From positions 133,424,001 to 133,488,000 of the forward strand of contig CM069131.1 in NCBI GenBank assembly GCA_035221665.1: a DNA stretch of 64,000 nt, given 5' to 3'. The position numbers were made by a program, and so were the translations under genes. This DNA comes from Okamejei kenojei. Lineage: Eukaryota. Shown here in pieces: positions 6,160 through 51,960 of the stretch. Position 1 is the stretch's first letter. Every line of letters starts with the position of its first letter. The notes under the pieces were generated by a model. The model searched no databases and had not been told where the DNA came from. It worked only from the letters and a program-made list of their open reading frames with translations.

Positions 6160-7090
6160 AGGTTAATCTGAGTGAGGTGCTGCAATTTGGGAGTTCAAAT
6201 GTTTGGGGAAAGTACACAGTTAATGGCAAGACCCTTAACGGCATTAATGTACAGAGTGATCTTGGGCTCTAAGTTTATTGGTCCGTGAAAGTGGCAACAC
6301 AAAAGTAGATAGAGTGGTAGAAGCTTACCTTAATTGGTCAGAGCATCGAGTATAAGAAGCAGATGGAAAGAATGCAGATGCTGGTTTTATTTAAAATGGA
6401 CAGTGCTGGAGTCAGGCAGCATCTCTGGAGAACGTGCATAGGCGACAGGTCCTGACCCGAAACATCACCTCTCCATGTTCTCCAGAGATGCTGCCTGACC
6501 TTCTGATTCACTCCAGCACTTTGTGTTTTTCATTGAGTGTAAGAGTGTAATATTCACGTTGCAGCTTTATAATATTTTGATTAGGCTGCATTAAAAGTAT
6601 CGTGTGCAGTTCTGGTCACCCTATTACAGGAAGGATGTGGAGGCTTAGGAGAATGTGCAGAAGAGGTTTACCAGAATGCTGCCTGGATTAAAGGATATTA
6701 TCCACAAGAAGTAGGATTTTTAATTTTGTTTTCAGTGTTTGAGGCTGAAGGGTGACCCGATATATACAATTAGAAGAAGCTTTGATAAGGTAAAGAATAA
6801 GAACCTTTTTTGCAGGTTGAAATCGTCAAAGACTAGAGGGCGTAGTATTAAGTCCAAGGGAGCAAATTTAATGCAGATGTGGGAGATGAGTTTAAAGTTT
6901 TTTATATACAAAGAGCGGTATGCAGAGAAGCAGTAATGGCGTTTAAGAGGCTCTTAGATGGGCACACGCATTAATGGAGGGATGTGATTCACATGCAGGG
7001 AGAGGAGATTAGTTTAACTTGGCATCATGTTTGGCGCAGATATTGTGGGCCAAATATCCTGTTCCTGTGCTGTAACATTCTATGTTCTAT
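6160..7090 (+). mobile_element. Degenerate CR1 3' fragment interrupted by a PLE mini-element (6358-6530)
   Basis: CR1 RT C-terminal similarity; the insert is flanked by CATCGAGTATAAGA / CATTGAGTGTAAGA. Confidence 0.75.
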
Positions 7091-7927
7091 AAAGGATGAT
7101 GACATTTACTATTGTGTTCAGCGTGCCAGCAAAGAATTGGGCCATCTGGGAAATAGAGTGTTTGAACATCAAACCTGACATTAAGCTTTTGGTGTACCAG
7201 GCAACAGTGATCTCCATCCCACTGTTTTTGTAATGTAATGACAGCATATTGTTTGTGGTACCGGACCAGCAATCAAAGTTCTGGACCACTGCTGTGAGAA
7301 ATAAGATTGAAAGCCACTTGCGGTATATAAATTAATTTAATAAATATGGTATTTGAAAAGAGAGCAAGTTTCAAGATAACCACAAAACTAGATTTTCTTA
7401 AAATCCAGCTGGTTTAGTGATGTCTTTTTTCCAATTTGGCTTCTATGTATCTCCAGAATATAGTTAAGTGCAAAATAAGTGGTTGACTCTTAACTGTTGC
7501 TTTGGTTGGAGACAATTATGGATTGATGATAAATGCTTGCATTGCCAGTGCAATCTATAGACATGAACGAATAAATAAACAAAAACACTTGGACAACCTG
7601 CAAAGGCATATCAAATGCTGGAGGAAAATTGGCAACAAATCCATTGGCAGCATAAGAAAATTATTGTCAGTGTTCTGAGGTAAACGGTCCCAGCATTGAG
7701 AATAATTGCACCCGAGGGGCTCTGATGGATGGGCCACATTCTTTATGTCCTGACACTAGACAATGACACACGATTCCCAACTCGGTTCCTTGGAGAAACC
7801 ACACTACCAACACATCCACCACTAAAAGGATCAACTAAGTAAAGGTTGAGGACATGTTATATATTTTAATGATTTTAAATTTAGACATTCAAATCTTTAT
7901 TTTTGAAGTACAAATATATTCATACAT

Positions 7928-8200
7928 AGTTTAGTTTAGGTTGGAGATACTGCGCGGAGGCAGGCTCTTCCGTGTCCACACTGATCAACGATCCCCAGAC
8001 ATTAAAACTATCCTACACACACTAGGGACAATTTACATTTATAGAAAGCCAATTAACTTACAAACCTGTACGTCTTTGGAGTGTGGGAGGAAACCAAAGA
8101 TCTCGGAGAAAACAGAAGTGGCATTTGGGATTGAACCTGGATCTGTGCACTGAAAGCGCTGTAAGGCAGCAACTCTACCCCCGCTGTGGCAACGTGCCGC
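7928..8200 (-). mobile_element. V-SINE just upstream of the MOCS2 last exon
   Basis: Reverse complement of the same SINE. Confidence 0.8.
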
Positions 8201-8244
8201 ATTTTATGGAACGTTGTAATTTACTTTAAATTCTTTTATTTTAG

Positions 8245-8313
8245 GAGATCTATGATAATGAAGAATATATCTGGAAGGAAAATAAGGAGTGTCAATGGGT
8301 AAAAAATAACTAG
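8245..8313 (+). CDS. MOCS2: MOCS2B last coding exon
   Basis: ttttAG acceptor, phase 0; EIYDNEEYIWKENKECQWVKNN-TAG (human EIYEESSTWKGNKECFWASNS). Confidence 0.95.
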   Translation, partial: EIYDNEEYIWKENKECQWVKNN

Positions 8314-8341
8314 AACTAACTACATCTCACTGTAATCTTGA

Positions 8342-8550
8342 AATAAATATCATGCTGTGTGATTGTTATGCATTAATTGAAATAGCATTGTTATGCATTA
8401 ATTGAAACTGATAATGTGCTTTTGCACAATACTGATATGTGCAACAAAGGACAATGATGGGTGTACATTTTGGAATAGAATGAAGTAAATTATACCTTGC
8501 AGTTTCATGATGGATAATTTCTTGATCAGAAACTTGTTGATGCCAATAAA
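8342..8550 (+). promoter_or_regulatory. Candidate MOCS2 polyadenylation signals
   Basis: AATAAA at 8342-8347 and 8545-8550 in AT-rich sequence downstream of the stop. Confidence 0.55.
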
Positions 8551-9058
8551 GTTGTACTGATTTCCAGCATTTCTGGAATTTTAATTTATATCGATGAATG
8601 AACATGTGCAGCAATAGTCTTCAATTTAATTCTGACCATATTAAAAACGAAGAGAAGACCATGCAAATTTTAATGTGAACGGTGTCATATGTTTTCTTGG
8701 AGAAATGATGAAGTGCAGATGCTGATTTACAAACAAAGACACTAAGGGTTGGAGTAACTCAGCAGGTCAGGCAGCATCGCTGGAGAATATGGTTGGGCGT
8801 TGTTTTGCATCAGGACCATACAGATTAATTGTAGTGGGGGGACGTTGCTGGAAATGTGGAGGGGCTGAAACAAACACTGGCAAGTGATAGTTGAATACAG
8901 GTGAGGTGGGTAGGGGGTTAATTGGCGAAGGATGGACAAAGGCTATAAATGAAAAGAAAACAAAAGCCTGTAAGATAAGGAGAGACATGGAGTGAAATGT
9001 TCCCTCCCCTTCCCTCCCTGTGCCACCACACCCAGATAGGCTCTCATTTCCACTGTTA

Positions 9059-9486: not shown

Positions 9487-10303
9487 GATGTTATCCCATC
9501 CCCCTTGCCCGTTTCATCTATATCTGTTCCTCTGGCTTCACATTTCACCCCCATTCTTCCCACTTCTCTGAGCCAGCCCACTTCATTATCTTCTTGTGAT
9601 CTAGTCTCTCTGTCGCTGACTGGTCAGTCCTCACCAGAGGCCTCGTCTTTGTACCCCTGTGCCTGCACCTCAATGAGTTCTGCGTTTGCCATGATAATTC
9701 GGCCCTTCGAGCCAGCACCGCCATTCAATGTGATCATGGCCGATCATCTCCAATCTGTACCCCGTTCCTGCCTTCTCCCCACATTCCCTGACTCCGCTGA
9801 TGTTGAGCTCTTCTTCCATTGAGTCCTTCCGCCCCAACTGACGACTCTTTCTCCTGTCTCCTCTTCCTCTTGGACACCTACTTCTGGCCTTTTACAGTCT
9901 CTCATCCTTTTCATTTCCTACAGCTGATACTGGGCATCAATCTTGATTAATCCACTCCCTTAACCCATTCCAACCTCACATGCTACAAACTCGCAGATCT
10001 CCATTCCCTCTGCACCATTTTCAACCTCGTCATCAAATTTAATTCAAATGAAGTGTCTCAACCCAAATTATTGACTGTTCATTTCCCTCTGCAGATGCTA
10101 CCTGAATGCAAAAAACCTCCTGCAGTTTTTATTTAGCTCTAGATTCTGGCATCTGCGGTGTCTTGCATCTGTTATTTGGACATTGTTGGAAAGTAGATAA
10201 ACTGTGACCTCTAGTGGTATCAATCTACATGTGCATTCAGAAATACATTCTCACCGAAATACTTCAATGTATTTTCAATAGATAACCGTAACTTATCTAA
10301 TAA

Positions 10304-11610: not shown

Positions 11611-12384
11611 TGTACTTAATATGCACAATGGAACTTAACAGGGTTGTTGAAAATGCTCTGTCAGCAAGTCGACCTAATCTGATGAGAACCATTTAGTCAC
11701 TGAATCCTGTTCAAACTACTTATGGCTGCCTTTATGCACTGCCCCTGCAGACATTGCCAGAAATTAATCAATTGTGGATTTATTTCAATTGACATTTCCA
11801 TTGCATTCAGGGGTTATCATGGGCTAGATAGCGAGAAACAATTTCAGTTAGAAAATCTGGGATGAGGATTCACTACCTAAAAATTAAAGCCAGACCTGTA
11901 AGAAATTATTTTATTTGTAAGTGACAGCTGAGCTTCAGTAGCGTTGAGGGAGCGAATGCTGTACTGTCATGAAACTCGGACCATATCTGCTCGTTTTGTT
12001 GTAACAAATTCCATGGTGGTCCTTTGGGGTAAAAAAACGCACCAAAGCAAGAGATTCATGGTCAATATGACATTGGTATTGTGGGAGCCTATTATAAGTG
12101 AACTGTCTATTGCATTATAGTTAAGTCTGTGCTCCTGCTTAAACGGACACAAAGTGCTGGAGTAACTCAGCAGGTCAGACAGCATCTCTGGAGAACATGG
12201 ATAGGTCCTGTGGTCCTGCTAATGCTTGCTCTTGATCTAATTTAGCTAGCTGCATGTAGTTCACCAGGAAAGACACCACTTCACTTATAACACCAGAAAT
12301 AAATAAAGGAATCAATCAATTTTACAAGATTGCCTTTTTATTGTTTGATTTCTGCTTAATTTTTGAAAGCATTTGAGGTTTTAT

Positions 12385-12975
12385 ATATCAAAAATGCTGG
12401 AAGAACTCAGCAGGTCAAGCAGCATCTGTGGAAAGAGGAACCAGTCCATGTTTTGGATCAATGACCCTTGGGACTGGGGGAAGAGTGGAGGACTTGCAGT
12501 TTTCAGAGCAGAGGTGGAGGAAGGAGTGTGGTAAATGAGAAAAAATACAAATGGAAACAGGTTAAGGCAGATCAGGTGATAAGGAACATGCGTACTAACC
12601 ATTAGTAAGGCATTTTGAAAAATGGGATAAAAGGGAGATAAGTATGATGCTTGGAAATGATGAGATATTGTTCTGCTAGTTTACATTGGGACTTAACTAT
12701 GCCCACGTGGAGGTTGCAGACTGAAAGTTTGGAATGTGATTGGGATTGTAAATCAAATGGGCAGGCTACAGAAATCACCACCCCATGTGCACAAATAATC
12801 ACTCAATCCCTTTGTTCGTTTCTCCATTGTAGAGGAGACCACATTGTGTGCACCAAGTATAGTACTCAAGATTGGAAGTGCCTGCTTCACCTGGAATGAT
12901 TGTTTGCGTTCTTCGATATAGGGAAGAGAAAAGGTGAATGGACTGTTGTTGCATTTCCTCCAAATACATGGGAAA
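12385..12975 (-). mobile_element. Degenerate Penelope-like element
   Basis: TSNLEYYTWCTQCGLLYNGET (GIY-YIG motif with CxxC), then KLAEQYLI and the shared terminal module. Confidence 0.75.
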
Positions 12976-13055
12976 GAGCATCATTTGTGCAAGGATCAGC
13001 TCTGCAAGAATTTACAATTTTCTATTAGAATTAGAATTTATTAGATTTTTTTTTT

Positions 13056-14024: not shown

Positions 14025-17000
14025 CGCCAGGTGTGTCGAGATGGGGCTCCTAAAGGACTGTGTTAGGAACCTGGAGCAGCAGCTCGATGACCTCCGTCTC
14101 CTCAGGGAGAGTGAGGAGGTAATAGAGAGGAGCTACAGGGAGGTAGTCACTCCCAGACCACAGGAGGCAGACAAGTGGGTCATGGTTAGGAAGGGCAAGG
14201 GGCAGAGGCAGGGGCTAGAGAGTACCCCTGTGACCGTACACCTGGAAAATAGGTACTCAGGTTTGAGTACGATTGGAGGGGACAGCCTAGCTGGGGGCAG
14301 CAACAGCGGCCGGGCCTCCGGCACGGAGACCGGCCCTGATGCTCAGAAGGGTAGCAAAAAGAGGAGGGCAATTGTAATAGGGGACTCTATAGTTAGGGGG
14401 TCGGATAGGCGATTCTGTAGACGCAGTCGGGAGACCCGGATGGTAGTTTGCCTCCCTGGTGCCAGGGTCTCGCATGTGTCAGAACGTGTACAAAAGATTC
14501 TGATAAGGGAGGGAGAGGAGCCTGATGTTGTGGTACACATAGGTACCAATGACATAGGCAGAAAAAGTGACGAGGTCCTGAAGGGAGAATTTAGGGAGTT
14601 GGGGGGGAAAGTTAAGGAGAAGGACCAAAAGGGTAACGATTTCAGGATTACTGCCTGTGCCGCGTGAAAGTGATAGTAGGAATGAAATGAGGTGGAGGAT
14701 AAATGCGTGGCTGAGGGACTGGTGCAGTGGGCAGGGATTCAAGTTTCTTGATCACTGGGACCTCTTTTGGGGAAGGCATGATCTGTACACAAAGGACGGG
14801 TTGCACTTGAACCCGAGGGGGACCAATATCCTGGCCGGGAGATTTGCAAAGGCTACTGGGGAGACTTTAAACTAGAAAGGCTGGGGGGAGGGACTCGGGT
14901 AGAGGGGGCTAGGGGTCAGGGTGTGGGGCAAGAGGCAGAGAAGGGAAGCACTCGGATCCAAAATGTAGGCGAGAAAGATGAAAAAGATAATAGACAGAGA
15001 ATAAGGGATGGTGGGTTTCTAAAATGTGTATATTTTAATGCGAGGAGCATTGTAAGTAAGGTGGATGAACTTAGAGCCTGGATTGACACCTGGAAATATG
15101 ATGTTGTGGCAATCAGTGAAACATGGTTGCAGGAGGGCTGTGATTGGAAACTAAATATTCCAGGAGTTTGTTGCTTCAGGTGTGATAGAATTGGAGGGTC
15201 CAGAGGGGGAGGTGTTGCATTGCTTGTCAGAGAAGATATTACAGCAGTGCTTTGGCAGGATAGATTAGAGGGCTCGTCTAGGGAGGCTATTTGGGTGGAA
15301 CTGAGAAGTGGGAACTGTGTAGCAACACTTTTAGGGGTGTACTATAGACCACCAAATGGGGAGCGAGAATTGGAAGAGCAAATATGTAAGGAGATAGCAG
15401 ATATTAGTAGTAAGCACAAGGTAGTGATTGTGGGAGATTTCAATTTTCCAAAAATAGACAGGGAAACACATTCTGTAAATGGGCTGGATGGTTTGGAGTT
15501 TGTTAAATGTGTGCAGGATAGTTTTTTTGCAGCAGTACATAGAGGTATCGACCAGAGAAGGGGCAGTGCTGGACCTCCTGTTAGGAAATGAGGCAGGTCA
15601 GGTGACGGAGGTATGCGTTGGTGAGCACTTCGGGACCAGTGATCACAATACCATTAGTTTCAATATAATTATGGAGAGAGTCAGAACTGGACCTAGGGTG
15701 GAGATTTTTGATTGGAGAAAGGCTAACTTTGAGGGAATGCGTAAGGATTTTAAAGGAGTGAATTGGGACACTTTGTTTCATGGGAAGGATGTAGAAGAGA
15801 AATGGAGGACATTTAAAGGGGAAATTGTAAGAGTACAGAATCTTTATGTCCCTGTTACGTTGAAAGGAAATAGTAAAAATTGGAAAGAGCCATGGTTTTC
15901 AAGGGAAATTGGACACTTGTTTCGAAAAAAGAGAGATATCTACAATAATTATAGGAGGCATGGAGTAAATGAGGTGCTAGAGGAGTATAAAGAATGTAAA
16001 AAGAATCTTAAGAAAGAAATTAGGAAGGCTAAAAGAAGATATGAGGTTGCTTTGGCAAGAAAGGTGAAAGTAAACCCAAAGGGTTTCTACAGCTATATTA
16101 ATAGCAAAAGGATAACGAGGGATAAAATTGGACCATTAGAGAACCAGAATGGACAGCTATCTGCAGAGCCAAAAGAGATGGGGGAGATATTGAACAATTT
16201 CTTTTCTTCGGTATTCACCAAGGAGAAGGATATTGAACTCTGTGAGTTAAGGGGAAAAAGTAGAGTAGCTATGGAAACTATGAGATTCAAAGAGGAGGAA
16301 GTACCGACACTTTTGAAAAATATAAAAGTGGATAAGTCTCCAGGTCCTGACAGGATATTCCCTAGGACATTGAGGGAAGTTAATGTAGAAATAGCAGGAG
16401 CTATGACAGAAATATTTCAAATGTCATTAGAAACGGGAATAGTGCCGGAGGATTGGCGTACTGCGCATGTTGTTCCATTGTTGAAAAAGGGTTCAAAGAA
16501 TAAACCTAGCAATTATAGACCTATAAGTTTGACGTCAGTGGTGGGCAAATTAATGGAACGGATACTTAGAGATAATATATATAAGCATCTGGATAAACAG
16601 GGTCTGATCAGGAACAGTCAACATGGATTTGTGCCTGGAAGGTCATGTTTGACAAACCTTCTTGAATTTTTTGAAGCGGTAACTAGGGAAATTGATGAGG
16701 GTAAAGCAGTGGATGGCTGTTTGTCAGGTTGGAAGCCGGTGACCAGTGGGGTGCCTCAGGGATCTGTGTTGGGTCCACTGTTGTTTGTCATGTACATCAA
16801 TGATCTGGATGATGGGGTGGAAAATTGGATAAGTAAGTATGCAGATGATACTAAGATAGGTGGTGTTGTGGATAATGAAGTAGATTTTCAAAGTCTACAG
16901 AGAGATTTGGGCCATTTGGAAAAGTGGGCTGAAAGATGGCAGATGGAGTTTAATGCTGTTAAGTGTGAAGTGCTACATCTTGGCAGGACAAATCAAAATA

Positions 17001-17768
17001 GGAAGTACATGGTAAATGGTAGGGAATTGAGGAATGCTGTGGAACAGAGGGATCTAGGAATAACTGTGCATAGTTCCCTGAAGGTGGAATCGCATGTAGA
17101 TAGGGTGGTAAAGAAAGCCTTTGGTGTGCTGGCCTTTATAAATCAGAGCATTGAATATAGGAGTAGGGAAGTAATGTTAAAAATGTACAAGGCATTGGTA
17201 AGACCAATTCTGGAGTATGGTGTACAATTTTGGTCGCCTAGTTATAGGAAGGATGTCAACAAAATAGAGAGAGTACAGAGGAGATTTACTAGAATGTTGC
17301 CAGTGTTCCAGCAACTATGTTACAGAGAAAGGTTGAACAAGTTAGGTCTTTATTCTTTGGAGCGCAGAAGGTTAAGGGGGGACTTGATTGAGGTCTTTAA
17401 AATGAAGAAAGGGATAGACAGAGTTGACGTGGATACGTTTTTCCCATTGAGGGTAGGGAAGATTCAAACAAGAGGGCATGACATGAGAATTAAGGGACAG
17501 AAGTTTTGGGGTAACGTGAGGGGGAACTTCTTTACTCAGAGGGTGGTGGCTGTGTGGAATGAGCTTCCAGCAGAAGTGGTGGAGGCAGGATTGATTTTAA
17601 CATTTAAGAGTAAAGTGGATAGGTATATGGACGTGAAGGGAATGGAGGGGTATGGTCTGAGTGCAGGTAGATGGGACTAGGGGAAAACAAATGGTCGGCA
17701 CGGACTGGAAGGGCCGAGAGGGCCTGTTTCCGTGCTGTAATTGTTATATGTTATATGGTTATATGGTT
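14025..17768 (+). mobile_element. Young CR1 LINE, 5'-truncated within ORF1 (copy 1)
   Basis: ORF1 SGNH/GDSL esterase (IGDS, HIGTND, DGLH); ORF2 APE endonuclease (NARS, SETW, GDFN, SDH) and RT (GVPQGSVLGP, YADD); (TTATATGG)n tail; possible AACT duplication at 14021-14024 / 17769-17772; two +1 homopolymer frameshifts and a 147-bp RT deletion. Confidence 0.95.
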
Positions 17769-20864: not shown

Positions 20865-22005
20865 ATTACATTTTCTGTTTGTGAACAATACGCAGGACAT
20901 AGTTGGAGTTTGTTGTTTGTACAATTAATAATTTTAAAAGCAACTTAAATCAGGAAAAGTTAAAATTATGTGGACGCAAGGCAATGCAGATTCTGGTTTA
21001 AAAAAAGACACAAAGTGCTGGAGAACTCAGCGGGTCATGCAGCACCTCTGTAGAACATAGATGGGTGACATTTTGGGTCAGGACCCTTCTTCAGTCTTTA
21101 AAATTATGTTGCTTATTTATGGAAAACTGCCAGACTCTCATAGTCAGAAATTTTATACTGTTTTGCAGATGGTAAGGATAGCAATAAATGGCAGTGGGGC
21201 CATTCTTTGCATTAGCGCACAATAATAATTTAAAAACAGACAATGCAATTTAAATATAAATTGTGGCTCTCCTGCCAAGTTGAACATAGAAATGATCTGG
21301 CTAAAGACCAAAGAAGTGTCTTTCATTACTTTGTGTTGCTCTGTCTAGGAGGAGCAGCAGTTCTTATAAATAAAGCATAACCTCGCATTTTGAATGCTAG
21401 AAATATTAAGTATCTGGTCCTTACTTATGTTGGGGCGGTGGGGGGAGGTCACTGAAGTTCTTGATCTTCTGCCACCTGTTCTCCCAATAACCAATGTTAA
21501 TGGGAAATGCTGTGTGTGCTCCTCCAAGAGCAACACAAGTGATGCAGTGTCTGCAGATAGATATCCCAACCCAGGAACAGTAAGTGTAAATCCACGCCAG
21601 ACATGCAGTCCGGGGCAGCTGCTACAAGAAGCAGCAGGGCAGTAAATACTGCTGGCGCCTTAAGCTTCTTCACCAGCTCTAGAAAATTGGGTCATCTGCA
21701 GGGAACCCTGGAAACACCCAGTAGAAGTACTGCTGTTTGGATGGAAAATCAGCTCCAACATTTATTTAGACAACAGAGAAAGAGAAATTAAAATTATGTC
21801 TGTGAGAATGCTTAACTTCATATATCATTTTAAAGTCATTATTTCTACTTTGCCCAGACTCTTTGTCTCTTTTACCTATTCTCCTTCTGTCAATATTTCA
21901 GTCTGTTTATCATATTTTAAGTCTCAACTACAATAAGTCTTTTGATTCAATATAAAATTAGAAAAGTCGTAAATGGATTAGAGTGGTAATGTTTAGGATA
22001 CTCAC

Positions 22006-27194: not shown

Positions 27195-27804
27195 CTACAA
27201 GAACAAATAAATTTGTCCTAGTAAGGTTATGCAAAACTATTTTCATTCATGAATATTTTCTAATCCCTTATTAACCAGAAAAAAGATGATTTGTTTTGAA
27301 TAAACCAAGGGGATGTGGCCAATTGGTACTGATCTAACTTTACCACCCAGTGGCCACCTCCCATGGCCACAGGGCTTTGTTGTGGCTACACAGCTACTAA
27401 TGCACTGGTGGCATCATCAACGCCGCCTTTCCATGATTTGCATTGGTTCAAACAACACCAATCATGGGTGAAAAAAGTTGAAGAGAAAGAAATAAGAGAG
27501 ATTACATCTTATTTAGAATAATAGTTTAACAAGTTTATATTAAAATACTATACAAAGTGTTCACACCGGAGGGCTGGTCCCCCAACACAATATTCCACCT
27601 CTCCACCAATTCCAATATTGGTGGCCAGCGGGGGGCTTTCTGGAGTGCTAGTATGGGTACTGTGGGCTGAAGGGACCGGTTAGTATGGACATTGTGGGCC
27701 AAATGGATTCTTGGGGTGGCAGCTCAGTCACTCAAACCGGATGTACTGGCAGCTCACTAATGGCTGGTGGGCTAGCAGTTGACTCACGGCTATTACTTGA
27801 AATT

Positions 27805-28300
27805 CCATTTCAAGCAGGGTGCAAGGCAACCAAATTCAAATGCAGTTTCCTACCATTTCAAGCAGGGTGCTAGGCCACCAAATTCAAGTGCAGTTTCTTA
27901 CCACTTCAAGCAGGGTGCAAGGCCACCGAATTCAAGTGCAGTTTCCAACCACTTCAAGCAGGGTGCAAGGCCACCGAATTCAAGTGCAGTTTCCAACCAC
28001 TTCAAGCAGGGTGCAAGGCCACCGAATTCAAGTGCAGTTTCCGACCACTTCAAGCAGGGTGCAAGGCCACCGAATTTAAGTGCAGTTTCTTACCACTGCA
28101 AGCAGAGTGCAGGGCCACCAAACTCAAGTGTAGTTTCATGCCATTTTAAGCAGGGTGCAAGGCCACCAAATTCAAGTGCAGTTTCGTGCCACTTCTAGCA
28201 GGGTGCAAGGCCACCAAATTCAAGTGCAGTTTCATGCCATTTCATGCAGGGTGCAAGGCCACCACATTCAAATGCAGTTTCATACCATTTCAAGCAGGGT
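27805..28300. repeat. 48-bp minisatellite, about 10 copies
   Basis: CAAGCAGGGTGCAAGGCCACCGAATTCAAGTGCAGTTTCCAACCACTT with unit starts at 27811, 27859, 27907 ... 28291. Confidence 0.95.
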
Positions 28301-28689
28301 GAAACCACCATGAAACCACTATAAAACCACACAAAACACGACATAAACATCACATTCAGTGTGTTCAGTTGATTCACAGCTCAGACAGAGTCGTGACTTC
28401 TCTCGCCCATCTTGCAGAGACTGAGCCACACCCACACTTACGGGTTTTATAATCCTTCCCCCACAAACTGGAAGGGGCGTGGCCTTCATGGCGTGATTGC
28501 CAGGAGAGAGATTCTCAACATTTTTTAAAACACTAATAACACTTTTATTTTTCATTGATGGGAAGAATCACCTGATGAGTGGCGAGGAACTGAGTAAGAA
28601 TGCCAAAAATCACAGCCGTAAGTGGTATTTTTACATAGGTGTTTTATCTAAAATCAATATTCAGTGCAAACAGGAAGTTGTCACGTTTC

Positions 28690-29790: not shown

Positions 29791-30480
29791 TCATTTTCAA
29801 ACCACAATAAGGACACTCGCAGTTGAATAGACATGTGTTCAGTGTTATTCAGAGCTCAGAGAAGTGTGACCCTCTCGCTTCCTCTATCTTGCAGAGACTG
29901 AGGCGCACCACTTCTGGGTTTTATAGTCCCTCCCCCCTCCCACCAGCAGGGGCAGCAGAGAAAATGATGAATTTTTAAAAAACATTAATATCTCTCTGAT
30001 TTTTCATCGATGGGAAAAGTCCTCCAGTCCAGTCCAGTCCGGCGGAGGGGGGCTCAGAGCGAGGTGGCCAAAAATGACAGCCGTAAGTGGAGGCGTTCTC
30101 TCGAAAATCACATCGCAGTGAGTCAAGAGCGGTCAAAATCTTACTTTTAGAAATATAGATAGAAAATTGTCATTACTTTCATACATAAATATAGAGTGAA
30201 ATAAAGGAAAATAGACAAATGACAATTACATTTATTTTTTCAGTGACACATGGCAACTCCACCTAAATAGATGGGTCAGCTCTGACTGGCATGAAGCTGG
30301 GGGGACAGATATGGCCTATTTGGCCCCTCAATTTAGCAACTTGTTGAATGCTCCTGGACTGCTTTGGCATGGAAGCTTTCTCCACAGAACTGCCGTAATC
30401 GTCAGTGCATTCCAGTATTTCTACATCTTGCCAAACATCAACTAAAGAATAGTAAGTTTAATAATAGGATGTCATCTTAC

Positions 30481-30591: not shown

Positions 30592-31349
30592 CTGAAATTA
30601 TTTTAGAAACAGAAGATCTCTAAAATGAACGATCAAATAACAGTAACAATGTTTATTCACTATATGTTAGTCTCCAATGTGAAAGGTAAGTCGTAAAAAA
30701 TAAGTAAATAAATATGATATTTGGGGCCTATGGTTTAATTGTTATATTGTTCCAATAAATGTACAAAGTAGTTTGATCGTTTCTGATCAGACAGTTTTCT
30801 TGATTGCTAAATTTTCTTTAGCAGATAAGGTTAGCAATTCTTATTCCCAATACAAAGCAATGTCTGTCATCAGTACGTAAATTCACTCTGCTCCCAGCCA
30901 GCTACATCTCAAGGGATTCTCTATGAACAATCCTATTAATAACAGCAGATGAGTTATTTTAACCAGAAAAATAAGATAGATGACTACTGTCTTCATTTGT
31001 TGAACATTCCCCCAGGTTTGATGAGAAGAAGAATTATTGCATTATTGTGATGTGGCATGATCATTACACCCTAGCTAATACAAAAGATTTATGAGAGTGG
31101 GGTCATGGTACCATCGCAGAGGGACCCAAGTTGATTGGAAAACATTTACACAGATTTGCATATGTACATACTTGCAAACATGTAGACAAATGGACATACA
31201 TATATCTAGTCTGTATTCTCTTCCGTGGCCCTCCCTCACACGCCTCTATCCTGATCCATTCCCTCCTTTAGTGTCCACTTCCCCAACTACCTTCTCTTCC
31301 ATTTTTACACTTTTTTAACCTCACCCGGACAGTTCCCCCTTTACTGATT

Positions 31350-31544
31350 TATAGGAAGGAAATGCAGATGCTGATTTACACCAAAGATAGACACAAAATG
31401 CTGGAGTAACTCAGCGGGACAGGCAGCATATCTGGAGAACATGGACAGTCTGAAGAAGGGTTCTGACCCCAAACGTCACCTGCTCCTTTGCTCCCTCCAG
31501 AGATGCAGCCTGACCCGCTGAGTTACTCCAGCATTTTGTGTCCA
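31350..31544. mobile_element. Hairpin-shaped PLE-derived mini-element with 16-bp TSD
   Basis: Inverted arms about 31390-31437 / 31495-31542 with a degenerate hammerhead in the loop; TCCCCCTTTACTGATT / TCCCCTTTTACTCATT flanks. Confidence 0.75.
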
Positions 31545-32348
31545 TCCCCTTTTACTCATTCCTCTCCTTTCTTGTAAAAACATTGGGCCATATAAGAAAT
31601 AAATGTTATGAGTGACTGAAACTATAGGAAGATACATAATGTGTGCACAAACATTTATTCAATTGGTGAAGATGTGCAATAATTTATTTATTCAATTTTA
31701 CATATATCTAATCCACTGTGGACACAGCTGATTGGACGTAACCAGAAAATACATTTTCTCAATGGTAAGAGATGCTGGCGCAATTGGAGACTAAAGTCAC
31801 ACTTTGGCTCAGCTTTATTAGATCTTATTTGTGTAACGTTTGTTGTTCCCCATCACCAAATATCATCAAGATTGTGCTGGTTCCAGACTTCCTCCCCCCT
31901 ACCCCCAAGTAAAAAGTTTTATTGCATCTAATCTGTTAAATTCATTCAGAATTTTTCCACTGCGGTCACCTCTCAATTTTCTACATTTCAAAGCCTACTG
32001 GCCCATTTTGAACAATCTTTTTGTGTGAAATACCTTTGTTATCTCAGGAATCAATCTGATGAAGTTAGTTTTGACTCTAGATGATGTTGCAAAATAGAAA
32101 TTTTGTTTTGCCTCCTCAATATACATCTTTCTTAACTGCATTCTCACTGAGGTCAAAATATTGGTATTGTTAATTATATATTTTTTGTCAAAGTACACGG
32201 AATTTCATTAGCTGCAATCTGTAGTGACTATTTTCTTCGCTGCTTTCATCTACAATCAAGACTTAAATTGAAACTGCGCAGAAAGAATGTTAATACTGTT
32301 AGATAATATTATGGTACATGATACATGAGAATTATGAACATGACGTAC

Positions 32349-34801: not shown

Positions 34802-36110
34802 TCAAAGTCAAAGTCAAAAGAGTTTATTGTCATGTGTCCCTGACAGGACAATGAAATTATTTCTTTGCATAGCACAACAGAACATAGTAGGGATGCTGCT
34901 GCACCCGCTGAGTTGCTCCAGCTTTTTGTGTAACCCTCGATTCTCCAGCATCTGCAGTTCCTTCTTTAACAGAACATAGTAGGCATTGTCTACAATTATA
35001 TACGTAAATACACACATTAATTAATTAATTAATAAAGTGCAAATAACAGATGGAGGGGTATTAATGTTCAGAGTTTTGTCCGAGCCAAGTTTAATAGCCT
35101 GATGGCTGTGGGGAAGTAGCTATTTCTGAACCGGGTCGTTGCAGTTCTCAGGCTCCTGTACTGTCTACCCGAAGGTAGCAGGGAGATGAGTGTGTGGCCA
35201 GGGTGGTGTGGGTCCTTGATGATGCTGCCAGCCTTTTTGAGGCAGCGACTGTGGTAGATCCCCTCGATGGAAGGAAGGTCAGAGCCGATGATGGACCGGG
35301 CAGTGTTTACTACTTTTTGTAGTCTTTTCCTCTCCAGGGCACTCAAGTTGCCGAACCAGGCCACGATGCAACTGGTCAGGAAGCTCACTACTGTGCACCT
35401 GTAGAAGTTAGAGAGCGTCTTCCTTGACAGACCGACTCTCTGTAATCTTCTCAGGAAGTAGAGGCGCTGATGAGCTTTATTAATAATTGCATCTGTGTTC
35501 TTGGATCAGGAAAGATCTTCACAGATGTGCACACCCAGGAATTTGAAGCTTTTGACCCTTTCAACCATCGACTCATTGATATTAACAGGACTGTGGGTCC
35601 CCATCCTACTCCTTCCAAAGTCAATAATCAGTTCCTTGGTTTTGCTGGTGTTGAGGGCCAGGTTATTGTGCTGGCACCATATGGACAGTCGCTCGATCTC
35701 TCTTCTATACTCTGACTCATCCCCATCAATGATACGTCCCACTACAGTGGTGTCGTCAGCGAACTTGATGATGGAGTTTGCACTATGACCGGCTACGCAG
35801 TCATGAGAATAGAGTGAGTACAGCAGGGGGCTGAGCACGCAGCCTTGATGTGCTCCCGTGCTGATTGTTATCAAGGCTGACACATTTCCACCAATACGAA
35901 CAGACTGTGGTCTGTGAATGAGGAAGTCGAGGATCCAATTGCAGAGGGATGTGCAGAGACCCAGTTCTGCGAGTTTGGTAATCAGCTTGGAGGGGATGAT
36001 TGTGTTAAATGCCGAGCTGTAGTCAATGAATAACAGCCTGACATATGAGTTTTTGTTGTCCAAGTGGTCCAGAGCGGAGTGGAGGGCCAGCGAGATCGCG
36101 TCCACGATTG
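34802..36110 (-). mobile_element. Rex1/Babar-type LINE, 5'-truncated
   Basis: [44 protein letters not shown]; (TTTGAC)n tail. Confidence 0.88.
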
Positions 36111-39285: not shown

Positions 39286-42200
39286 AACCATATAACATAT
39301 AACATATAACAATTACAGCACGGAAACAGGCCCTCTCGGCCCTTCCAGTCTGTGCCGACCATTTGTTTTCCCCTAGTCCCATCTACCTGCACTCAGACCA
39401 TACCTCTCCATTCCCTTCACGTCCATATACCTATCCACTTTACTCTTAAATGTTAAAATTGATCCTGCCTCCACCACTTCTGCTGGAAGCTCATTCCACA
39501 CAGCCACCACCCTCTGAGTAAAGAAGTTCCCCCTCACGTTACCCCGAAACTTCTGTCCCTTAATTCTCATGTCATGCCCTACCCTCAATGGGAAAAACGT
39601 ATCCACGTCAACTCTGTCTATCCCTTTCATCATTTTAAAGACCTCAATCAAGTCCCCCCTTAATCTTCTGCGCTCCAAAGAATAAAGACCTAACTTGTTC
39701 AACCTTTCTCTGTAACATAGTTGCTGGAACCCTGGCAACATTCTAGTAAATCTCCTCTGTACTCTCTCTATTTTGTTGACATCCTTCCTATAACTAGGCG
39801 ACCAAAATTGTACACCATACTCCATAATTGGTCTTACCAATCCCTTGTACAATTTTAACATTACTTCCCTACTCCTATATTCAATGCTCTGATTTATAAA
39901 GGCCAGCACACCAAAGGCTTTCTTTACCACCCTATCTACATGCGATTCCACCTTCAGGGAACTATGCACAGTTATTCCTAGATCCCTCTATTCCACAGCA
40001 TTCCTCAATTCCTTACCATTTACCATGTACTTCCTATTTTGATTTGCCCTGCCAAGATGTAGCACTTCACACTTAACAGCATTAAACTCCATCTGCCATC
40101 TTTCAGCCCACTTTTCCAAATGGCCCAAATCTCTCTGTAGACTTTGAAAATCTACTTCATTATCCACAACAACACCTATCTTAGTATCATCTGCATACTT
40201 ACTTATCCAATTTTCCACCCCATCATCCAGATCATTGATGTACATGACAAACAACAGTGGACCCAACACAGATCCCTGAGGCACCCCACTGGTCACCGGC
40301 TTCCAACCTGACAAACAGCCATCCACCATTACTCTCTGACATCTCCCATTCAGCCACTGTTGAATCCATCTTGCTACTCCGCCATTAACACCCAAAGATT
40401 GAACCTTCTTAACCAACCTTCCATGGGGAACCTTGTCAAAGGCATTACTGTAATCCATATAGACAACATCCACTGCTTTACCCTCATCAATTTCCCTAGT
40501 TACCGCTTCAGAAAATTCAAGAAGGTTTGTCAAACATGACCTTCCAGGCACAAATCCATGTTGACTGTTCCTGATCAGACCCTGTTTATCCAGATGCTTA
40601 TATATATTATCTCTAAGTATCCTTTCCATTAATTTGCCCACCACTGACGTCAAACTAATAGGTCTATAATTGCTAGGTTTATTCTTTGAACCCTTTTTAA
40701 ACAATGGAACAACATGCGCAGTACGCCAATCCTCCGGCACTATTCCCGTTTCTAATGACATTTGAAATATTTCTGTCATAGCTCCTGCTATTTCTACATT
40801 AACTTCCCTCAATGTCCTAGGGAATATCCTGTCAGGACCTGGAGACTTATCCACTTTTATATTTTTCAAAAGTGTCAGTACTTCCTCCTCTTTGAATCTC
40901 ATAGTTTCCATAGCTACTCTACTTTTTCCCCTTAACTCACAGAGTTCAATATCCTTCTCCTTGGTGAATACCGAAGAAAAGAAATTGTTCAATATCTCCC
41001 CCATCTCTTTTGGCTCTGCAGATAGCTGTCCATTCTGGTTCTCTAATGGTCCAATTTTATCCCTCGTTATCCTTTTGCTATTAATATAGCTGTAGAAACC
41101 CTTTGGGTTTACTTTCACCTTTCTTGCCAAAGCAACCTCATATCTTCTTTTAGCCTTCCTAATTTCTTTCTTAAAATTCGTTTTACATTCTTTATACTCC
41201 TCGAGCACCTCATTTACTCCATGCCTCCTATAATTATTGTAGATATCTCTCTTTTTTCGAAACAAGTGTCCAATTTCCCTTGAAAACCATGGCTCTTTCC
41301 AATTTTTACTATTTCCTTTCAACGTAACAGGGACATAAAGATTCTGTACTCTTACAATTTCCCCTTTAAATGTCCTCCATTTCTCTTCTACATCCTTCCC
41401 ATGAAACAAAGTGTCCCAATTCACTCCTTTAAAATCCTTACGCATTCCCTCAAAGTTAGCCTTTCTCCAATCAAAAATCTCCACCCTAGGTCCAGTTCTG
41501 ACTCTCTCCATAATTATATTGAAACTAATGGTATTGTGATCACTGGTCCCGAAGTGCTCACCAACGCATACCTCCGTCACCTGACCTGCCTCATTTCCTA
41601 ACAGGAGGTCCAGCACTGCCCCTTCTCTGGTCGATACCTCTATGTACTGCTGCAAAAAACTATCCTGCACACATTTAACAAACTCCAAACCATCCAGCCC
41701 ATTTACAGAATGTGTTTCCCAGTCTATTTTTGGAAAATTGAAATCTCCCACAATCACTACCTTGTGCTTACTACTAATATCTGCTATCTCCTTACATATT
41801 TTGCTCTTCCAATTCTCGCTCCCCATTTGGCGGTCTATATACACCCCTAAAAGTGTTGCTACACCGTTCCCACTTCTCAGTTCCACCCAAATAACCTCCC
41901 TAGACGAGCCCTCTAATCTATCCTGCCAAAGCACTGCTGTAATATCTTCTCTGACAAGCAATGCAACACCTCTCCCTCTGGACCCTCCAATTCTATCACA
42001 CCTGAAGCAACGAAATCCTGGAATATTTAGTTTCCAATCACAGCCCTCCTGCAACCATGTTTCACTGATTGCCACAACATCATATTTCCAGGTGTCAATC
42101 CAGGCTCTAAGTTCATCCACCTTACTTACAATGCTCCTAGCATTAAAATATACACATTTTAGAAACCCACCATCCCTTATTCTCTGTCTATTATCTTTTT

Positions 42201-43200
42201 CATCTTTCTCGCCTACATTTTGGATCCGAGTGCTTCCCTTCTCTGCCTCTTGCCCCACACCCTGACCCCTAGCCCCCTCTACCCGAGTCCCTCCCCCCAG
42301 CCTTTCTAGTTTAAAGTCTCCCCAGTAGCCTTTGCAAATCTCCCTGCCAGGATATTGGTCCCCTTCGGGTTCAAGTGCAACCCGTCCTTTGTGTACAGAT
42401 CATGCCTTCCCCAAAAGAGGTCCCAGTGATCAAGAAACTTGAATCCCTGCCCACTGCACCAGTCCCTCAGCCACGCATTTATCCTCCACCACATTTCATT
42501 CCTACTATCACTGTCACGCGGCACAGGCAGTAATCCTGAAATCGTTACCCTTTTGGTCCTTCTCCTTAACTTTCCCCCCAACTCCCTAAATTCTCCCTTC
42601 AGGACCTCGTCACTTTTTCTGCCTATGTCATTGGTACCTATGTGTACCACAACATCAGGCTCCTCTCCCTCCCTTATCAGAATCTTTTGGACACGTTCTG
42701 ACACATGCGAGACCCTGGCACCAGGGAGGCAAACTACCATCCGGGTCTCCCGACTGCGTCTACAGAATCGCCTATCCGACCCCCTAACTATAGAGTCCCC
42801 TATTACAATTGCCCTCCTCTTTTTGCTACCCTTCTGAGCATCAGGGCCGGTCTCTGTGCCGGAGGCCCGGCCGCTGTTGGTGCCCCCAGCTAGGCTGTCC
42901 CCTCCAATCGTACTCAAACCCGAGTACCTATTTTCCAGGTGTACGGTCACAGGGGTACTCTCTAGCCCCTGCCTCTGCCCCTTGCCCTTCCTAACCGTGA
43001 CCCACTTGTCTGCCTCCTGTGGTCTGGGAGTGACTACCTCCCTGTAGCTCCTCTCTATTACCTCCTCACTCTTCCTGACCAGACGGAGGTCATCGAGCTG
43101 CTGCTCCAGGTTCATAACACAGTCCTTTAGGAGCCCCATCTCGATACACCTGGCGCAGATGTGGACGTCCAAGTGGGACAGCCGCTGAACTCTCATGGAG
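39286..43200 (-). mobile_element. Young CR1 LINE (copy 2, same subfamily), in an ITGA2 intron
   Basis: ORF1 42306-43196 (HICARC, coiled coil, esterase); ORF2 42258-39373 with one in-frame stop at 39988; same 3' tail; near-identical to copy 1. Confidence 0.95.
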
Positions 43201-44314
43201 CTCTCTCTTTATAATTGATGGCAAATATATCTGATGTTCAGACTCTAACTTTCATTATTTTTGCCCCTATTTCACCTTCTCATTGCCTGTTTAAGGGATC
43301 TCATTTTAGCAGAAGCTTTGAATATCTTCCATTTTTGGTTGGCATCTGTTTTTTTCCTTCACGGAGCACCTTCATATATTACAAGTTAGACAAAAATGCT
43401 GGAGAAACTCAGCGGGTGAGTCGGCATCGATGGAGAGAAAGAATAGATGACATTTTGGGTCAAGACGCTTCTTACAAGGTACCTCAAGATGTCCTTGGAT
43501 AATGAACAGGTTCTATTTTAACCAATATTCATATGTTAATTTTGTCCGTAAATTGCAAGATACACATTGATAAAAAATACATCTATTCTTGCTCCTGAAC
43601 ACATCATCAGTGATATAACTTTGGGTCATTGGGTGTATCGGATCTTTCAACATCAGACACCCTCACCCAGGCGACACAGCCGTGGTTGATTAGACCATGA
43701 TTTGTGTTCAGGTGGCATTTGCTCCGCATTGACCTCCTCTTCTGATCCAGAGCCATCCCGAGGCCTTCTCCGCTGCCTCTGTGGTGTTCTTGATGGCTCT
43801 TCTCCTCTCCATTCCATTGATGCCCAATGCACTCAAGGCTTCGTAGAGTGATTGCCCTGCAAAACCTCTGCAGCCAACCTCGATGGGTGCACACCTTGCC
43901 TTCCAGCCCTGCTTAGGGCAGTCTATGACCAGCTCTTCATACTATGTGTGACCCGAATGCTAACCATGCCTCCACAGTATTGTAATGATTGACAACAAAA
44001 GCATATAAGACTGATAATAAAGAACATTTACTAAATGTGGAGGGAGATAGGGGGGGGGAGAGGGAGAAGGAGAGGGAGAGGGGAAACTAGTTCTGCCATT
44101 TGTAGGAATTAATGTATTTTCATACATTGGAATTTAATTTGTATGTAGGGGCGACTAAAGTGAAGATAAATTAAAGTATTTGAAAGGTCACTTGACTGTC
44201 CCTGTTTAACAGGCAGGTACATTCCGCCTCTAATGGAAAGGGAGGAGTTTGTAGAAACTTGATGTGAAACGGGCATTCAATGTGCAATAGACTGCAAGAA
44301 ACAATAAAACTTAC

Positions 44315-46680: not shown

Positions 46681-46829
46681 CTATCAACAGAAGAAAAGTG
46701 AGGCAATATATTTAATTAGAGCTTTTCTTTGGCATGTTTAATCACAGGAAAATGCAACAATGATACACATTTTGACTAAACAATTACAGTAACCAAGGAT
46801 TATGCATGAGGATATTTCATGAATTGTGA

Positions 46830-47980
46830 GAGGTTTGATGACCTTTCATCAAGGCAGGGTATTCACAGTGAATGGTGGGGTCTCGGGGAGAGTTGCAGAA
46901 CAGAGGGATTTAGCAGAGCAGGTATGTTGTTCCCTGAAAGCAGAGGTAATGTTAGGCAGAGGGGTGATGAAGGCTTTTGGTACACTGGCCTTCATCAGTC
47001 AGGATAATCTCCCGACGCTCAGTCTGAAGAAGGGCCTTGACCTGAAACATTTTATATTCCTTTTCTTCAGAGATGCTCTCTGACCTGTTGAGTTGCTCCA
47101 GCTTTTTGTGCCTATCCACAGAGTATGGAAGTTGGGCCATTATGTTGCAGTTGTACAGAGTATTTTGTTCAATTTTGGTCACCCTGTCGGGTGTGGAGCA
47201 AATTTATAAGGATGTTTCCAGAATTGGAAGGCCTAAGCTACAGAGAAGGTTTGGTTAGACTGTGACTTTATCTCTTAGAGCACAGAAAACTGATGGATGA
47301 CCTTATAGAGGTGTATAAAACAATGATGGGAATAAATAGGGTGAACAAATAAGAGTATTTTATCCATAGTAGGGGAATCAAAAACTAGAGAACATAGGTT
47401 TAAGACAATATTTGGGGCAATATTTAATAAAAAATGTGATCGGAACTCTTTCACTCAGAGTGTGGTGAGTATATGAAACAAACTGCTAGAGGAAGTAGTT
47501 GAAGCAGATATGATAACAGCATTTAAAGACACTTGGACAGATACATGAATAGGAAAGCTTTTGTGGAATATGGGCTAAATGCAAGTTAATGAAAATATCT
47601 TAGATGGGGCATCTTGGTCAGCAGAGAAGAGTTGGACTGAAGGGCATGTGTCATGTTTGTAAGACTATTACCACAAAGGTTTACATATTAATAAGAGTAA
47701 GGGGTAGGCCATTTAGAACTGAGATAAGGAAAAAAAAAAAACACCCAGAGAGTTGTGAATTTGTGGAATTCTCTGCCTCAGAAGGCAGCGGAGGCCGATT
47801 CACTCGATGCATTCAAAAAGGAGTTAGACGAACTCTTAGTGATAGCGGAATCAAGGGATATGGGAAGAAGGCAGGAACAGGGTACTGATTGTCGATGATC
47901 AGCTGTGATTACATTAAATTGTGCTGCTGGCTTGAAAGACAGAATGGCCTGCACTTATTTTCTATGTACAGTATCTATGT
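46830..47980 (+). mobile_element. Degenerate CR1 fragments
   Basis: EQRDL and KAFGTLAFISQ motifs plus CR1 3' UTR similarity. Confidence 0.7.
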
Positions 47981-48282: not shown

Positions 48283-48596
48283 CTGTCAAAATAAAAGAGT
48301 TAAATACACATCACAAATAATAAATTTAAGCATTTGCCTTTCAAAATAGTTGTCTAATACTGTCTATATCTATAACTATTTTAAATAGCCAGACACCTTA
48401 CTTCTAATTAGATGACATAATTTTGCAAGGAAAGTATTTCACTAGTAATAGTGGAGCAAAGTTGGAAAAGAATAGCCGGCAGTTCAGCATAGAACTCTGT
48501 CATTCCTCCTCTGAATAGTCTTCTGGCACACAACAAACTTCTTCAGATAGCCAAACATGGCAAAAGATCAGAAAGTTTGACCATATAGTTTAGCTT

Positions 48597-49305: not shown

Positions 49306-49736
49306 TGTCATGGGAGTCCAGCCGTTATGGGAGTCCAGCTTATGGGAGTCCAGCATTTAAAATTAATGTCTTGACAGAGAAATCAATACATTTTCACAAG
49401 TGCACAATTGCACAGTTAAAGCATGTGGAAGGCACTGTTGATATTTAGTGGTTGGAGATAACATTGCAGGAGGCACACGAAAGAAAGGTAGCCCCAACTT
49501 AGAGGTTAAATGCACGACTTCTATGCAAGTGCAGATCTAAGCATGAATGGGAAGGTGGGTGGGGATTTCCTCATTGGTGATGACCATTATGGGACAGTCA
49601 TGCGGAAGTAATTTTAATTGTAACAGAATTGCCAGGCTCCTTTTCTCTCAGGTGACGCATTAAGTGAAACAGACAATCATTTACCCTAGTAATTTAATTG
49701 CAGACATAAAGTATGTAAATAAAATGGTCTACTCAC

Positions 49737-49866
49737 TGATGAAAAAAAGATGTTTTTAGAAAAATGTATGTTGACTTTAGCATTAAACGCATTTTCCTTC
49801 TTGTTCTTTGCCTCTACATTAATTGTTATCCGTTTGTTCTTGCTGCTAACTATGTATGGTGTTGTT
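49737..49866 (-). CDS. ITGA2: Integrin alpha-2 exon (20 equivalent; calf-1)
   Basis: 130 nt: TTPYIVSSKNKRITINVEAKNKKENAFNAKVNIHFSKNIFFSS; donor GTGAGT. The exact 3' boundary is slightly uncertain (see findings). Confidence 0.88.
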
Positions 49867-50587
49867 CTATTGGTATTAAAAAAAATATTAATTTTAGTAT
49901 ACATTTAGGAAAGTCCAATGCAAAATATACATTTTATTCAAATAAACACAAATTTCTACTATTATTATTCAAAGCAGTGTTAATTAATTTATCATTGTCC
50001 ATCACAGATACACCAACAAATACATCTCAACAAAGCCTACAATTCACAGCCATATATTTAAAGGAAATATTCTTTCATTGTCTTGTTGATATCCTGTTTG
50101 ATATGCCTTGGTCCTGTCCTTTCTCCGGCACTGGTTTTCAAAGGGAAGGGTGATTAAAAGCTATAATTGAGTAACAATAAATTTGCTTGAACTTCCGGTT
50201 CAAATGTGAATAGGTTAATTGGCCTCTGCCAATTACCCCTAGTGTATCGGGAGTGGATGCAAAAGTGGGAGAATATAGAACTGGTGTGAACTGGTGATCA
50301 ATGGTTAACATGGAATCGGTAGGACGAAGAGTTTGTTTCTATGCTGCATCTTTCAACCTAAAATATGTTCGGCCAGAAACATGGAGAAATAACAGTTTGC
50401 TCTGATTCTCAATGGCACCTACTTTTGATTTGTGTTTGGGATGTGGATAATACTAACGTGGAAGAATGCATTGTTCATCCATTACCATGGCAGGACTATT
50501 TCGAAGTTGCATGGTATGGATTTGAACATATTCTCAATGTATATTTCCCCTCAATTTGATCGACACGTCTTGGGGATAGTCCGCATT

Positions 50588-51225
50588 ACATAGAAACATA
50601 GAAACATAGAAATTAGGTGCAGGAGTAGGCCATTCAGCCCTTCGAGCCTGCACCGCCATTCAATATGATCATGGCTGATCATCCAACTCAGTATCCCGTA
50701 CCTGCCTTCTCTCCATACCCTCTGATCCCCTTAGCCACAAGGGCCACATCCAACTCACTCTTAAATATAGCCAATGAACTGGCCTCAACTACCCTCTGTG
50801 GCAGAGAGTTCCAGAGACTCACCACTCTCTGTGTGAAAAAAGTCTTTCTCATCTCGGTCTTAAAGGATTTCCCCCTTATCCTTAAGCTGTGACCCCTTGT
50901 CCTGGACTTCCCGAACATCGGGAACAATCTTCCTGCATCTAGCCTGTCCAACCCCTTAAGAATTTTGTAAGTTTCTATAAGATCCCCTCTCAATCTCCTA
51001 AATTCCAGAGAGTATAAACCGAGTCTATCCAGTCTTTCTTCATAAGACAGTCCTGACATCCCAGGAATCAGTCTGGTGAACCTTCTCTGCACTCCCTCTA
51101 TGGCAATAATGTCCTTCCTCAGATTTGGAGACCAAAACTGTACGCAATACTCCAGGTGTGGTCTCACCAAGACCCTGTACAACTGAAGTAGAACCTCCCT
51201 GCTCCTGTACTCAAATCCTTTTGCA
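50588..51225 (-). mobile_element. CR1 3' fragment (second subfamily)
   Basis: KGFEYRSREV...GEKAGTGY; (TTTCTATG)n tail. Confidence 0.9.
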
Positions 51226-51404
51226 GTAGGAAGATGCATGTCTTCACATTTCTGAAGGTATATAAAATTCCAGGTATATAAATCATCATATATCCAGGAA
51301 CACTGTGGGAAGGTAGAGGATAAATTCACAGGAGCCCTGGTTGAGATATATACATCATCATTCGCCACAGGTGACCGGAGGGGAGCTAATGTTGTGCCTT
51401 TATT

Positions 51405-51960
51405 TAGGCAGGCAGCATCTATGGAGAGAAGGAATTGATGACGTTTCGGGTCGAGACCCTTCTTCAGAAGTGAGGGGGGTGATTGGTTGAGTACGTGGAG
51501 TAAGTGACAAAGGCTAGAGGTGAAAAGGGGGCAAAAGCATGTCAGATCGTTCGTCTGCTCGTGTGTCAGACGATGTCGCTCGCTGTTGGCTTCTGTCGTT
51601 TCCAACATGTTGACAGAATTGTCGCCCGATGCATCGCGTTGTCGCTTCCAGGGATCGCCACGAGGAGGCTTCTGTCATGATCCACAGCATGTCTGATAAG
51701 GAGAGCTCACGAGTGAAAGGTAAAGTTTGGTAGGAGACGTATGTGTGGAAAGGAATGCAGAAAACAGAGGAGATCTAGGGCTGGAAAGGAGGGGAAAGGA
51801 GTAGGGTGACTGGCAGGTGGGGGGGGGGGGGGGGGGGGGGGGGGGTTATTGAGAGTGGGTGGGAGAAATGGAAATTTTTTAATGGGAAATTGAAATTGGA
51901 AAATTTAATGTTCACATTATTGTGATGTAAGCTAATCACGCAAAGCATGAGGTACTGTTA
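51405..51960 (-). mobile_element. Penelope-like 3' end: GIY-YIG C-terminus, UTR, hammerhead core, terminal module
   Basis: Minus-strand translation QYLMLCVISLHHNNVNIKFSNF near 51960-51890; hammerhead core at 51467-51440. Confidence 0.7.
51440..51467 (-). ncRNA. Minimal type-I hammerhead ribozyme core (PLE type)
   Basis: CTGAAGA-A-GGGT(CTCG)ACCC-GAAA-CGTC: CUGANGA box, stem II, GAAA, palindromic ACGT stem III and a GUC triplet. Stem I is not evident. Confidence 0.65.

Follow-up and report, generated by a model that had tools for sequence, protein, structure and literature searches.

Short hammerhead-bearing modules of Okamejei kenojei as terminal segments of a Penelope-like element

A 64,000-nucleotide stretch of Okamejei kenojei DNA (contig CM069131.1, positions 133,424,001 to 133,488,000; hereafter the window), which belongs to a genome of 2.76 Gb, contains many short copies of a module that carries a predicted hammerhead ribozyme and, in part of the copies, a 3' tail. 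An earlier, sequence-only reading regarded these copies as an independent, retrozyme-like family, processed by its ribozyme and mobilised by a Penelope-like element (PLE). The recurrence of the module is borne out by a profile search of the window, which recovers 20 tail-bearing arms in 16 insertions, and the module corresponds to the terminal 100-130 nt of a parent PLE. Module positions are numbered from C3 of the CUGA core along the hammerhead strand, the opposite of the module strand used in the earlier reading.

Parent element and copies in the window

Walking from loci that end in a GIY-YIG domain led to two intact elements (L143 and L144). Each consists, in order, of a partial pseudo-long terminal repeat (pLTR), a core with its tail, a frame of 1197 amino acids, a 3' untranslated region (UTR), a second core and a short end. 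Intact copies thus have the form pLTR-ORF-pLTR (ORF, open reading frame), with one module directly preceding the ORF and another at the 3' end. The single ORF joins a reverse transcriptase (RT) to a C-terminal GIY-YIG endonuclease (EN); in L144 the RVT_1 match (E-value, E, 5e-6) and the GIY-YIG match (E 0.004) both lie below the Pfam cut-off, and the GIY-YIG match of another locus (L005) exceeds it. The frame holds the motifs DKG and YIG, C..C ahead of YIG, and between RT and EN a CX4CxxC linker (CNRKKCNTC at 1064); a linker of the type CX2-5CxxC marks Neptune and Nematis (PMC8557442). Partial-tandem pLTRs, inverted 5' copies and an optional tail of 30-40 bp are likewise present. Judged by its sequence, the parent is an autonomous, endonuclease-positive (EN+) PLE with a Neptune-type linker, and the PLE origin assigned to the modules holds. 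The first ATG of the parent lies at +162, past the tail, and a PDB sequence search with its ORF gave no match. At L126:771-2534, a 588-aa frame, which resembles an exon of a NACHT/NLR immune gene, adjoins inverted PLE copies.

Head-to-head fold-backs (2118-2322, 6366-6536, 31349-31547 and 55662-55876) had been described as frequent in the window; they exist but make up only a quarter of its insertions (4/16). In the second, the cores are deleted at the junction. All four proposed target-site duplications (TSDs) lie where they had been placed (Table 1). A blind search recovers each of them, 6344/6531 only at score 8, under the cut-off of 10, and empty sites with a single TSD copy (nine loci for 34876, one for 6344) confirm two; the search for empty sites yielded none for 20960 and 31334. 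The 34889-34968 insert has no hammerhead; its host is the 3' end of a LINE (long interspersed element) 95% identical to L139 (RVT_1 plus ALKBH8_N). Judged by motifs, this host is presumably Rex1 and that of the 6344 copy CR1.

The intact core at 51467-51440 and six degenerate cores are present as claimed; in the intact one, helix I has 1 pair only. It had been placed downstream of a GIY-YIG C-terminus (51405-51960). The core itself is perfect, but the GIY-YIG match near 51950-51892 is weak, and about 200 nt of another repeat separate the two; they are therefore probably separate insertions, of which the GIY-YIG remnant is the older. Clearer GIY-YIG remnants lie at 12977-12390 and 188-371. An Rfam scan of the window, a check that had been suggested, returned no hammerhead match at E up to 10, and its miRNA (microRNA) matches were rejected as mere fold-backs.

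Table 1. Module copies and PLE remnants in the window (module extents relative to C3)
Position	Strand	Feature	Module extent	TSD	Remarks
147..371	plus	GIY-YIG C-terminus and 3' UTR remnant			same PLE group (E 9e-7)
2118..2322		head-to-head fold-back	minus arm -3 to +96, tail-less; plus arm +14 to +121, tailed	none detected in TSD search of window	degenerate core 2180-2207
6344..6544		fold-back	one tailed, one tail-less arm	6344/6531, 14 bp, 2 mismatches	within LINE RT frame
8710..8821	minus	single tailed arm	about +5 to +117
10048..10163	plus	old, weak arm			directly after PLE RT remnant 9543-10037 (E 1e-10)
12127..12220	minus	single arm	from about +28	13 bp, 1 mismatch	start at predicted cleavage site
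12390..12979	minus	ordinary 5'-truncated PLE			GIY-YIG remnant (E 5e-7) continuing into module
20960..21109	minus	single tailed mini copy	-3 to +121	20960/21098, 12 bp, perfect	degenerate core
31334..31560		fold-back	tailed arm +37 to +128; tail-less arm -4 to +93	31334/31545, 16 bp, 2 mismatches
34876..34983	plus	young-subfamily stub	+45 to +128	34876/34968, 16 bp, perfect	in LINE 3' end
43380..43473	minus	single tail-less arm	+3 to +97
47011..47124	plus	single tail-less arm			degenerate core at 47024
51409..51469	minus	perfect minimal hammerhead core (51467-51440)	3' part lost at +58
51892..52020	minus	decayed GIY-YIG C-terminus			weak match (E 0.058)
55662..55876		fold-back	tail-less arm to +98; tailed arm to +127		joint at CAG-N-CTG near-palindrome
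59171..59269	minus	single tailed arm	+18 to +113
59514..59648	plus	tailed arm			pyrimidine-rich 3' UTR remnant upstream; degenerate core at 59533
63717..63816	plus	single tailed arm	+25 to +127

Other repeats also occur in the window. The stretch 51520-51720 is a repeat of about 200 bp and of no assigned kind (79% like L082:7183-7297), with a chance match to the CPEB3 ribozyme (E 0.15). Two copies of a repeat of about 3.7 kb, probably a young LINE, lie in opposite orientation at 14025-17757 and 39296-43155 and are 98-99% alike. Minisatellites with units of 48 bp and about 52 bp, unrelated to the module, occupy 27709-28380 and 28664-29812.

Ends, junctions and the hammerhead across the genome

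Abundance was estimated from 140 fixed-position stretches of 10 kb, in which 534 tail-bearing arms make up 4.5% of bases; extrapolation gives about 1.05 million module arms genome-wide. The arms of this sample form 416 clusters: 315 single, 74 head-to-head, 3 tail-to-tail, 8 same-strand pairs and 16 more complex. When 38 complex or edge clusters are excluded, a TSD score of at least 10 is reached by 51 of 378 insertions and by 2 of 380 mismatched flank pairs. TSDs thus exceed chance, and individual retrotransposition of the copies, as had been proposed, is upheld. TSD length is 13-14 bp in 22 of 48 cases, and their sequence is 69% AT.

At the 3' side, short and long copies alike end in two groups, at about +90-100 and +120-129. 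An optional tail is already known in PLEs (PMC3846280, PMC8557442) and has been traced to two internal RT start sites in an anole PLE (PMC11167929); given this match, we infer that the two 3' ends correspond to internal RT start sites. The two kinds of arm meet in fold-backs, of which 55 of 74 combine one tailed and one tail-less arm (36.9 expected, p 1.6e-5).

At the 5' side, a profile that lacks the 3' UTRs of several subfamilies overcounts the boundary (at -12 to +6 in 260 of 534 arms); the corrected count uses a library of 50 UTR copies together with exact counts in one young subfamily. The upstream 3' UTR is then missing in 201 of 275 core-bearing arms across subfamilies, namely in 110 of 171 single and 91 of 104 paired arms. 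In the young subfamily, exact matches genome-wide fall from 23,551 for the core to 15,261 when extended to -4, 11,928 to -10 and 10,779 to -20, so that the first 10 nt upstream of the core account for the loss of 49% of the copies, compared with 10% for the next 10 nt. Among 61 inspected copies, 36 end at 0 to -9, with a mode of -2/-3 (17 copies) and one copy ending at a locus edge; the other 25 continue, and no copy ends at -10 to -19. The stop falls on YCAGT, a sequence that fits the initiator consensus. The stubs are not plain random truncations of the PLE, and the discrete boundary that had been claimed is real for many copies.

Four unusual fold-back junctions were searched genome-wide: two are unique, one occurs twice and one 162 times. 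The last was considered as an amplified fold-back family and rejected: in 19 of the 21 loci examined (L235, L255-L274) the fold-back sits, with shared flanks, inside another amplified repeat as its passenger. At these loci, a young fold-back with a 12-bp TSD lies in a host repeat that is rich in TGACGTCA motifs and occurs in at least 162 places; in several copies the tail segment has grown into a short tandem.

The majority bases of 261 copies give a predicted hammerhead of the minimal PLE type, as had been claimed, with matching core boxes, a helix II of 4 bp, an extra base after A9 and palindromic 15.2-16.2. Helix I has 2 pairs, its third position being A-C in 185 of the 261, and the active hammerhead dimer differs from the predicted minimum-energy fold. 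Lunse et al. reportedly described dimeric PLE hammerheads in 2017. Subfamily variation lies outside the core, which suggests constraint on the core in source elements only. In the copies, conservation is 0.93 for non-CpG core bases, 0.91 (median) for downstream bases and 0.73 for CpG core bases, and 40 of 261 cores are intact; the cores decay neutrally, at the same rate as their flanks, with loss of CpG.

The predicted cleavage site, +28, is the start of only 3 of the 534 arms, and 12127..12220 is the sole such case in the window. Exact-match counts are 25,205, 23,185, 21,026 and 19,928 from +30 to +27; the scissile-bond step loses 5.2%, the neighbouring steps 8.0% and 9.3%, although a C run and a polymorphic base fall within the latter. 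Ends thus show no excess at the cleavage site, and these figures speak against the ribozyme as what sets the insertion ends, contrary to the processing that had been proposed.

Origin of the modules

We give a probability of roughly 0.6 to the reading that the modules are the terminal hammerhead and tail segment of an autonomous PLE, each copy likely being a dead-end by-product of the element's copying. A more specific version is tentative and falls somewhat short of even odds. According to it, the stubs would be a record of run-off, "strong-stop"-like cDNA that maps the capped RNA 5' end to the hammerhead edge, and two-strand priming by a dimer from different start sites would make the fold-backs, which would explain the inverted pLTR and one-sided tail in all EN+ PLEs. 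Under the main reading, the PLE protein would bind the segment at the 5' end of the transcript and nick AT-rich DNA; reverse transcription, primed at +93 or +125 (the two internal start sites), would run off the RNA 5' end at YCAGT. Priming on the first pLTR of the transcript would yield a run-off cDNA of 100-130 nt, and priming on the last (3') pLTR the ordinary longer truncated copies. A protein dimer would nick both target strands 13-14 bp apart and prime one cDNA per start site, a fold-back would arise by joining of the two cDNA ends, and the hammerhead would be carried along as a passenger. In support of single steps, an internal promoter has been demonstrated in D. virilis Penelope (PMC2377424), an initiator-like TCACT is recorded in a rotifer pLTR (PMC3846280), and the protein of the anole PLE, a predicted dimer, nicks both strands and extends them (PMC11167929).

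Several observations weigh against this account. The RNA 5' end at the initiator-like YCAGT is putative, and the 5' ends of the copies are scattered over about 0 to -9 rather than fixed at one base. Some 5' junctions carry G-rich untemplated bases, and G precedes AGT in 6 of 8 copies, which suggests a cap-derived G; the whole-genome counts at -4 (C 27,125, A 2,449, G 2,143, T 1,214) do not. A TSD is detectable in only 13% of insertions (8% in held-out loci), TSD edges have no clear motif or symmetry in 30 single and 18 fold-back insertions, and the asymmetry of fold-back arms is weaker in held-out loci (24 of 36 mixed). Moreover, two TSD-flanked fold-backs 55 kb apart (L253 and L254, G000:C1:834631 and 890057) share the same rare junction, found nowhere else, in different flanks. 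De-novo fold-back formation does not account for this pair; local re-insertion and gene conversion are candidate readings. A tree of 259 rows over 100 nt, in which short and long copies are intermixed (60 label changes, 60.6 when shuffled), has low power.

The by-product origin would be kept if the sharp 5' end were instead set by RNA structure or a protein footprint, with the stretch from -3 to +125 forming a single domain trimmed back to its base, or with the RT dropping off or switching template there. In the young subfamily, the first 10 nt of the core are predicted to pair with the tail end and so close the segment; the spread of 5' ends across 10 nt agrees with this, the CAG-N-CTG near-palindrome would favour joining, and self-priming at junction palindromes has been suggested for PLE inversions (PMC3846280). 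However, we regard such an origin of the end as unlikely: the fold z-score is just -1.3, one pairing position differs among subfamilies, the same end occurs in 110 of 171 single copies, which have no fold-back, and the RT would presumably reach the stem from its 3' side rather than halt after passing it.

It is quite improbable that the copies form a non-autonomous SINE-like (short interspersed element) or retrozyme-like family with its own sources, which the hammerhead would process and the PLE would mobilise. Discrete ends, TSDs and about a million copies would suit such a family, as would the twin fold-backs at L253 and L254, the window copy that starts at the cleavage site, and the solo pLTRs and trans-mobilisation on record for PLEs (PMC3846280). 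Yet the scissile bond has no excess of ends, tandem units each with a hammerhead are not seen (only the 8 same-strand pairs among 416 clusters), few cores are intact, and helix I is 2 bp. Separate source lineages do not emerge either: the tree, within its low power, holds no clades of mini copies alone, long copies are present in 8 of 9 named sequence types, rare junctions are unique or local, and the junction with 162 copies is a passenger. The sequence-only reading had named three outcomes that would speak against it (no cleavage of dimers, a core no better conserved than its flanks, or modules that are simple truncated or inverted ends of a catalogued PLE without discrete boundaries), and two of them are largely what was found. 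A new class of ribozyme element does not stand.

Least probable of all is that the 5' end is a splice acceptor and the minis copy spliced RNA. In its favour, an acceptor-like sequence (a pyrimidine tract, then CAG/T before the core) is present in every aligned long copy, the intron of D. virilis stops where helix I begins on its 5' side (PMC4209133), and the ORF start (+162) coincides with a donor-like site (L144:2300-2320, overlapping the first ATG of the parent). Against it, the minis share no upstream exon, one predicted donor-acceptor junction had 0 genomic matches, and the AG or G that splicing would take out is kept in most copies.

The run-off account bears on the origin of inverted pLTRs and one-sided tails in PLEs and on the role of their hammerhead, which PMC8557442 and PMC11167929 pose as open. 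The counts yield two sharp predictions, an RNA start at -2 to -4 and one arm per start site. For annotation, the stubs amount to about 4.5% of the genome and can be mistaken for SINEs, MITEs (miniature inverted-repeat transposable elements) or miRNA hairpins.

Comparison with known systems

The comparison draws on excerpts of the cited papers; Repbase and Dfam lie outside it, and a prior catalogue entry for the family is quite possible. In the literature searched on Penelope elements, neither the sharp stop nor the arm counts were found, and the searches on Penelope in cartilaginous fishes and on twin priming returned no paper on the family. The architecture, with inverted copies, a one-sided tail and minimal hammerheads, is already published for PLEs.

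Minimal type-I hammerheads of metazoan PLEs (Cervera and de la Pena 2014, PMC4209133) share CUGANGA, the extra base after A9, G10.1-C11.1 and the palindromic 15.2-16.2, and they too occur mostly in single truncated copies, with some close opposite-strand pairs. Helix I is 2 bp here, as in D. virilis, and shorter than the 4-5 bp of Schistosoma; activity of the present motif is predicted only. Non-LTR retrozymes (bioRxiv 10.64898/2026.07.22.740005) are likewise non-coding, hammerhead-bearing and derived from pLTRs; as described there, they are tandem with one hammerhead per unit, whereas the stubs are single or inverted and end away from the cleavage site.

In the anole Poseidon element PAc (Frangieh et al. 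2024, PMC11167929), the hammerhead is followed about 110-120 nt downstream by two RT start sites, which delimit the tail; it is dispensable for insertion, and no reads end at its cut site, all of which resembles the present system. The PAc ORF, in contrast, begins within the hammerhead, whereas the present one has its first ATG at +162, and the PLE clade differs. With insertions of EN+ PLEs that have a Neptune/Nematis-type linker (Craig et al. 2021, PMC8557442; Arkhipova et al. 2013, PMC3846280), the parent and its copies share an RT plus GIY-YIG ORF, partial-tandem pLTRs, strong 5' truncation, an inverted 5' copy, a tail of 30-40 bp at one end, TSDs, solo pLTRs and junction palindromes. Unlike the elements described in the excerpts of these papers, most insertions here comprise the last 100-130 nt, stop sharply 0-9 nt before the hammerhead and number about a million.

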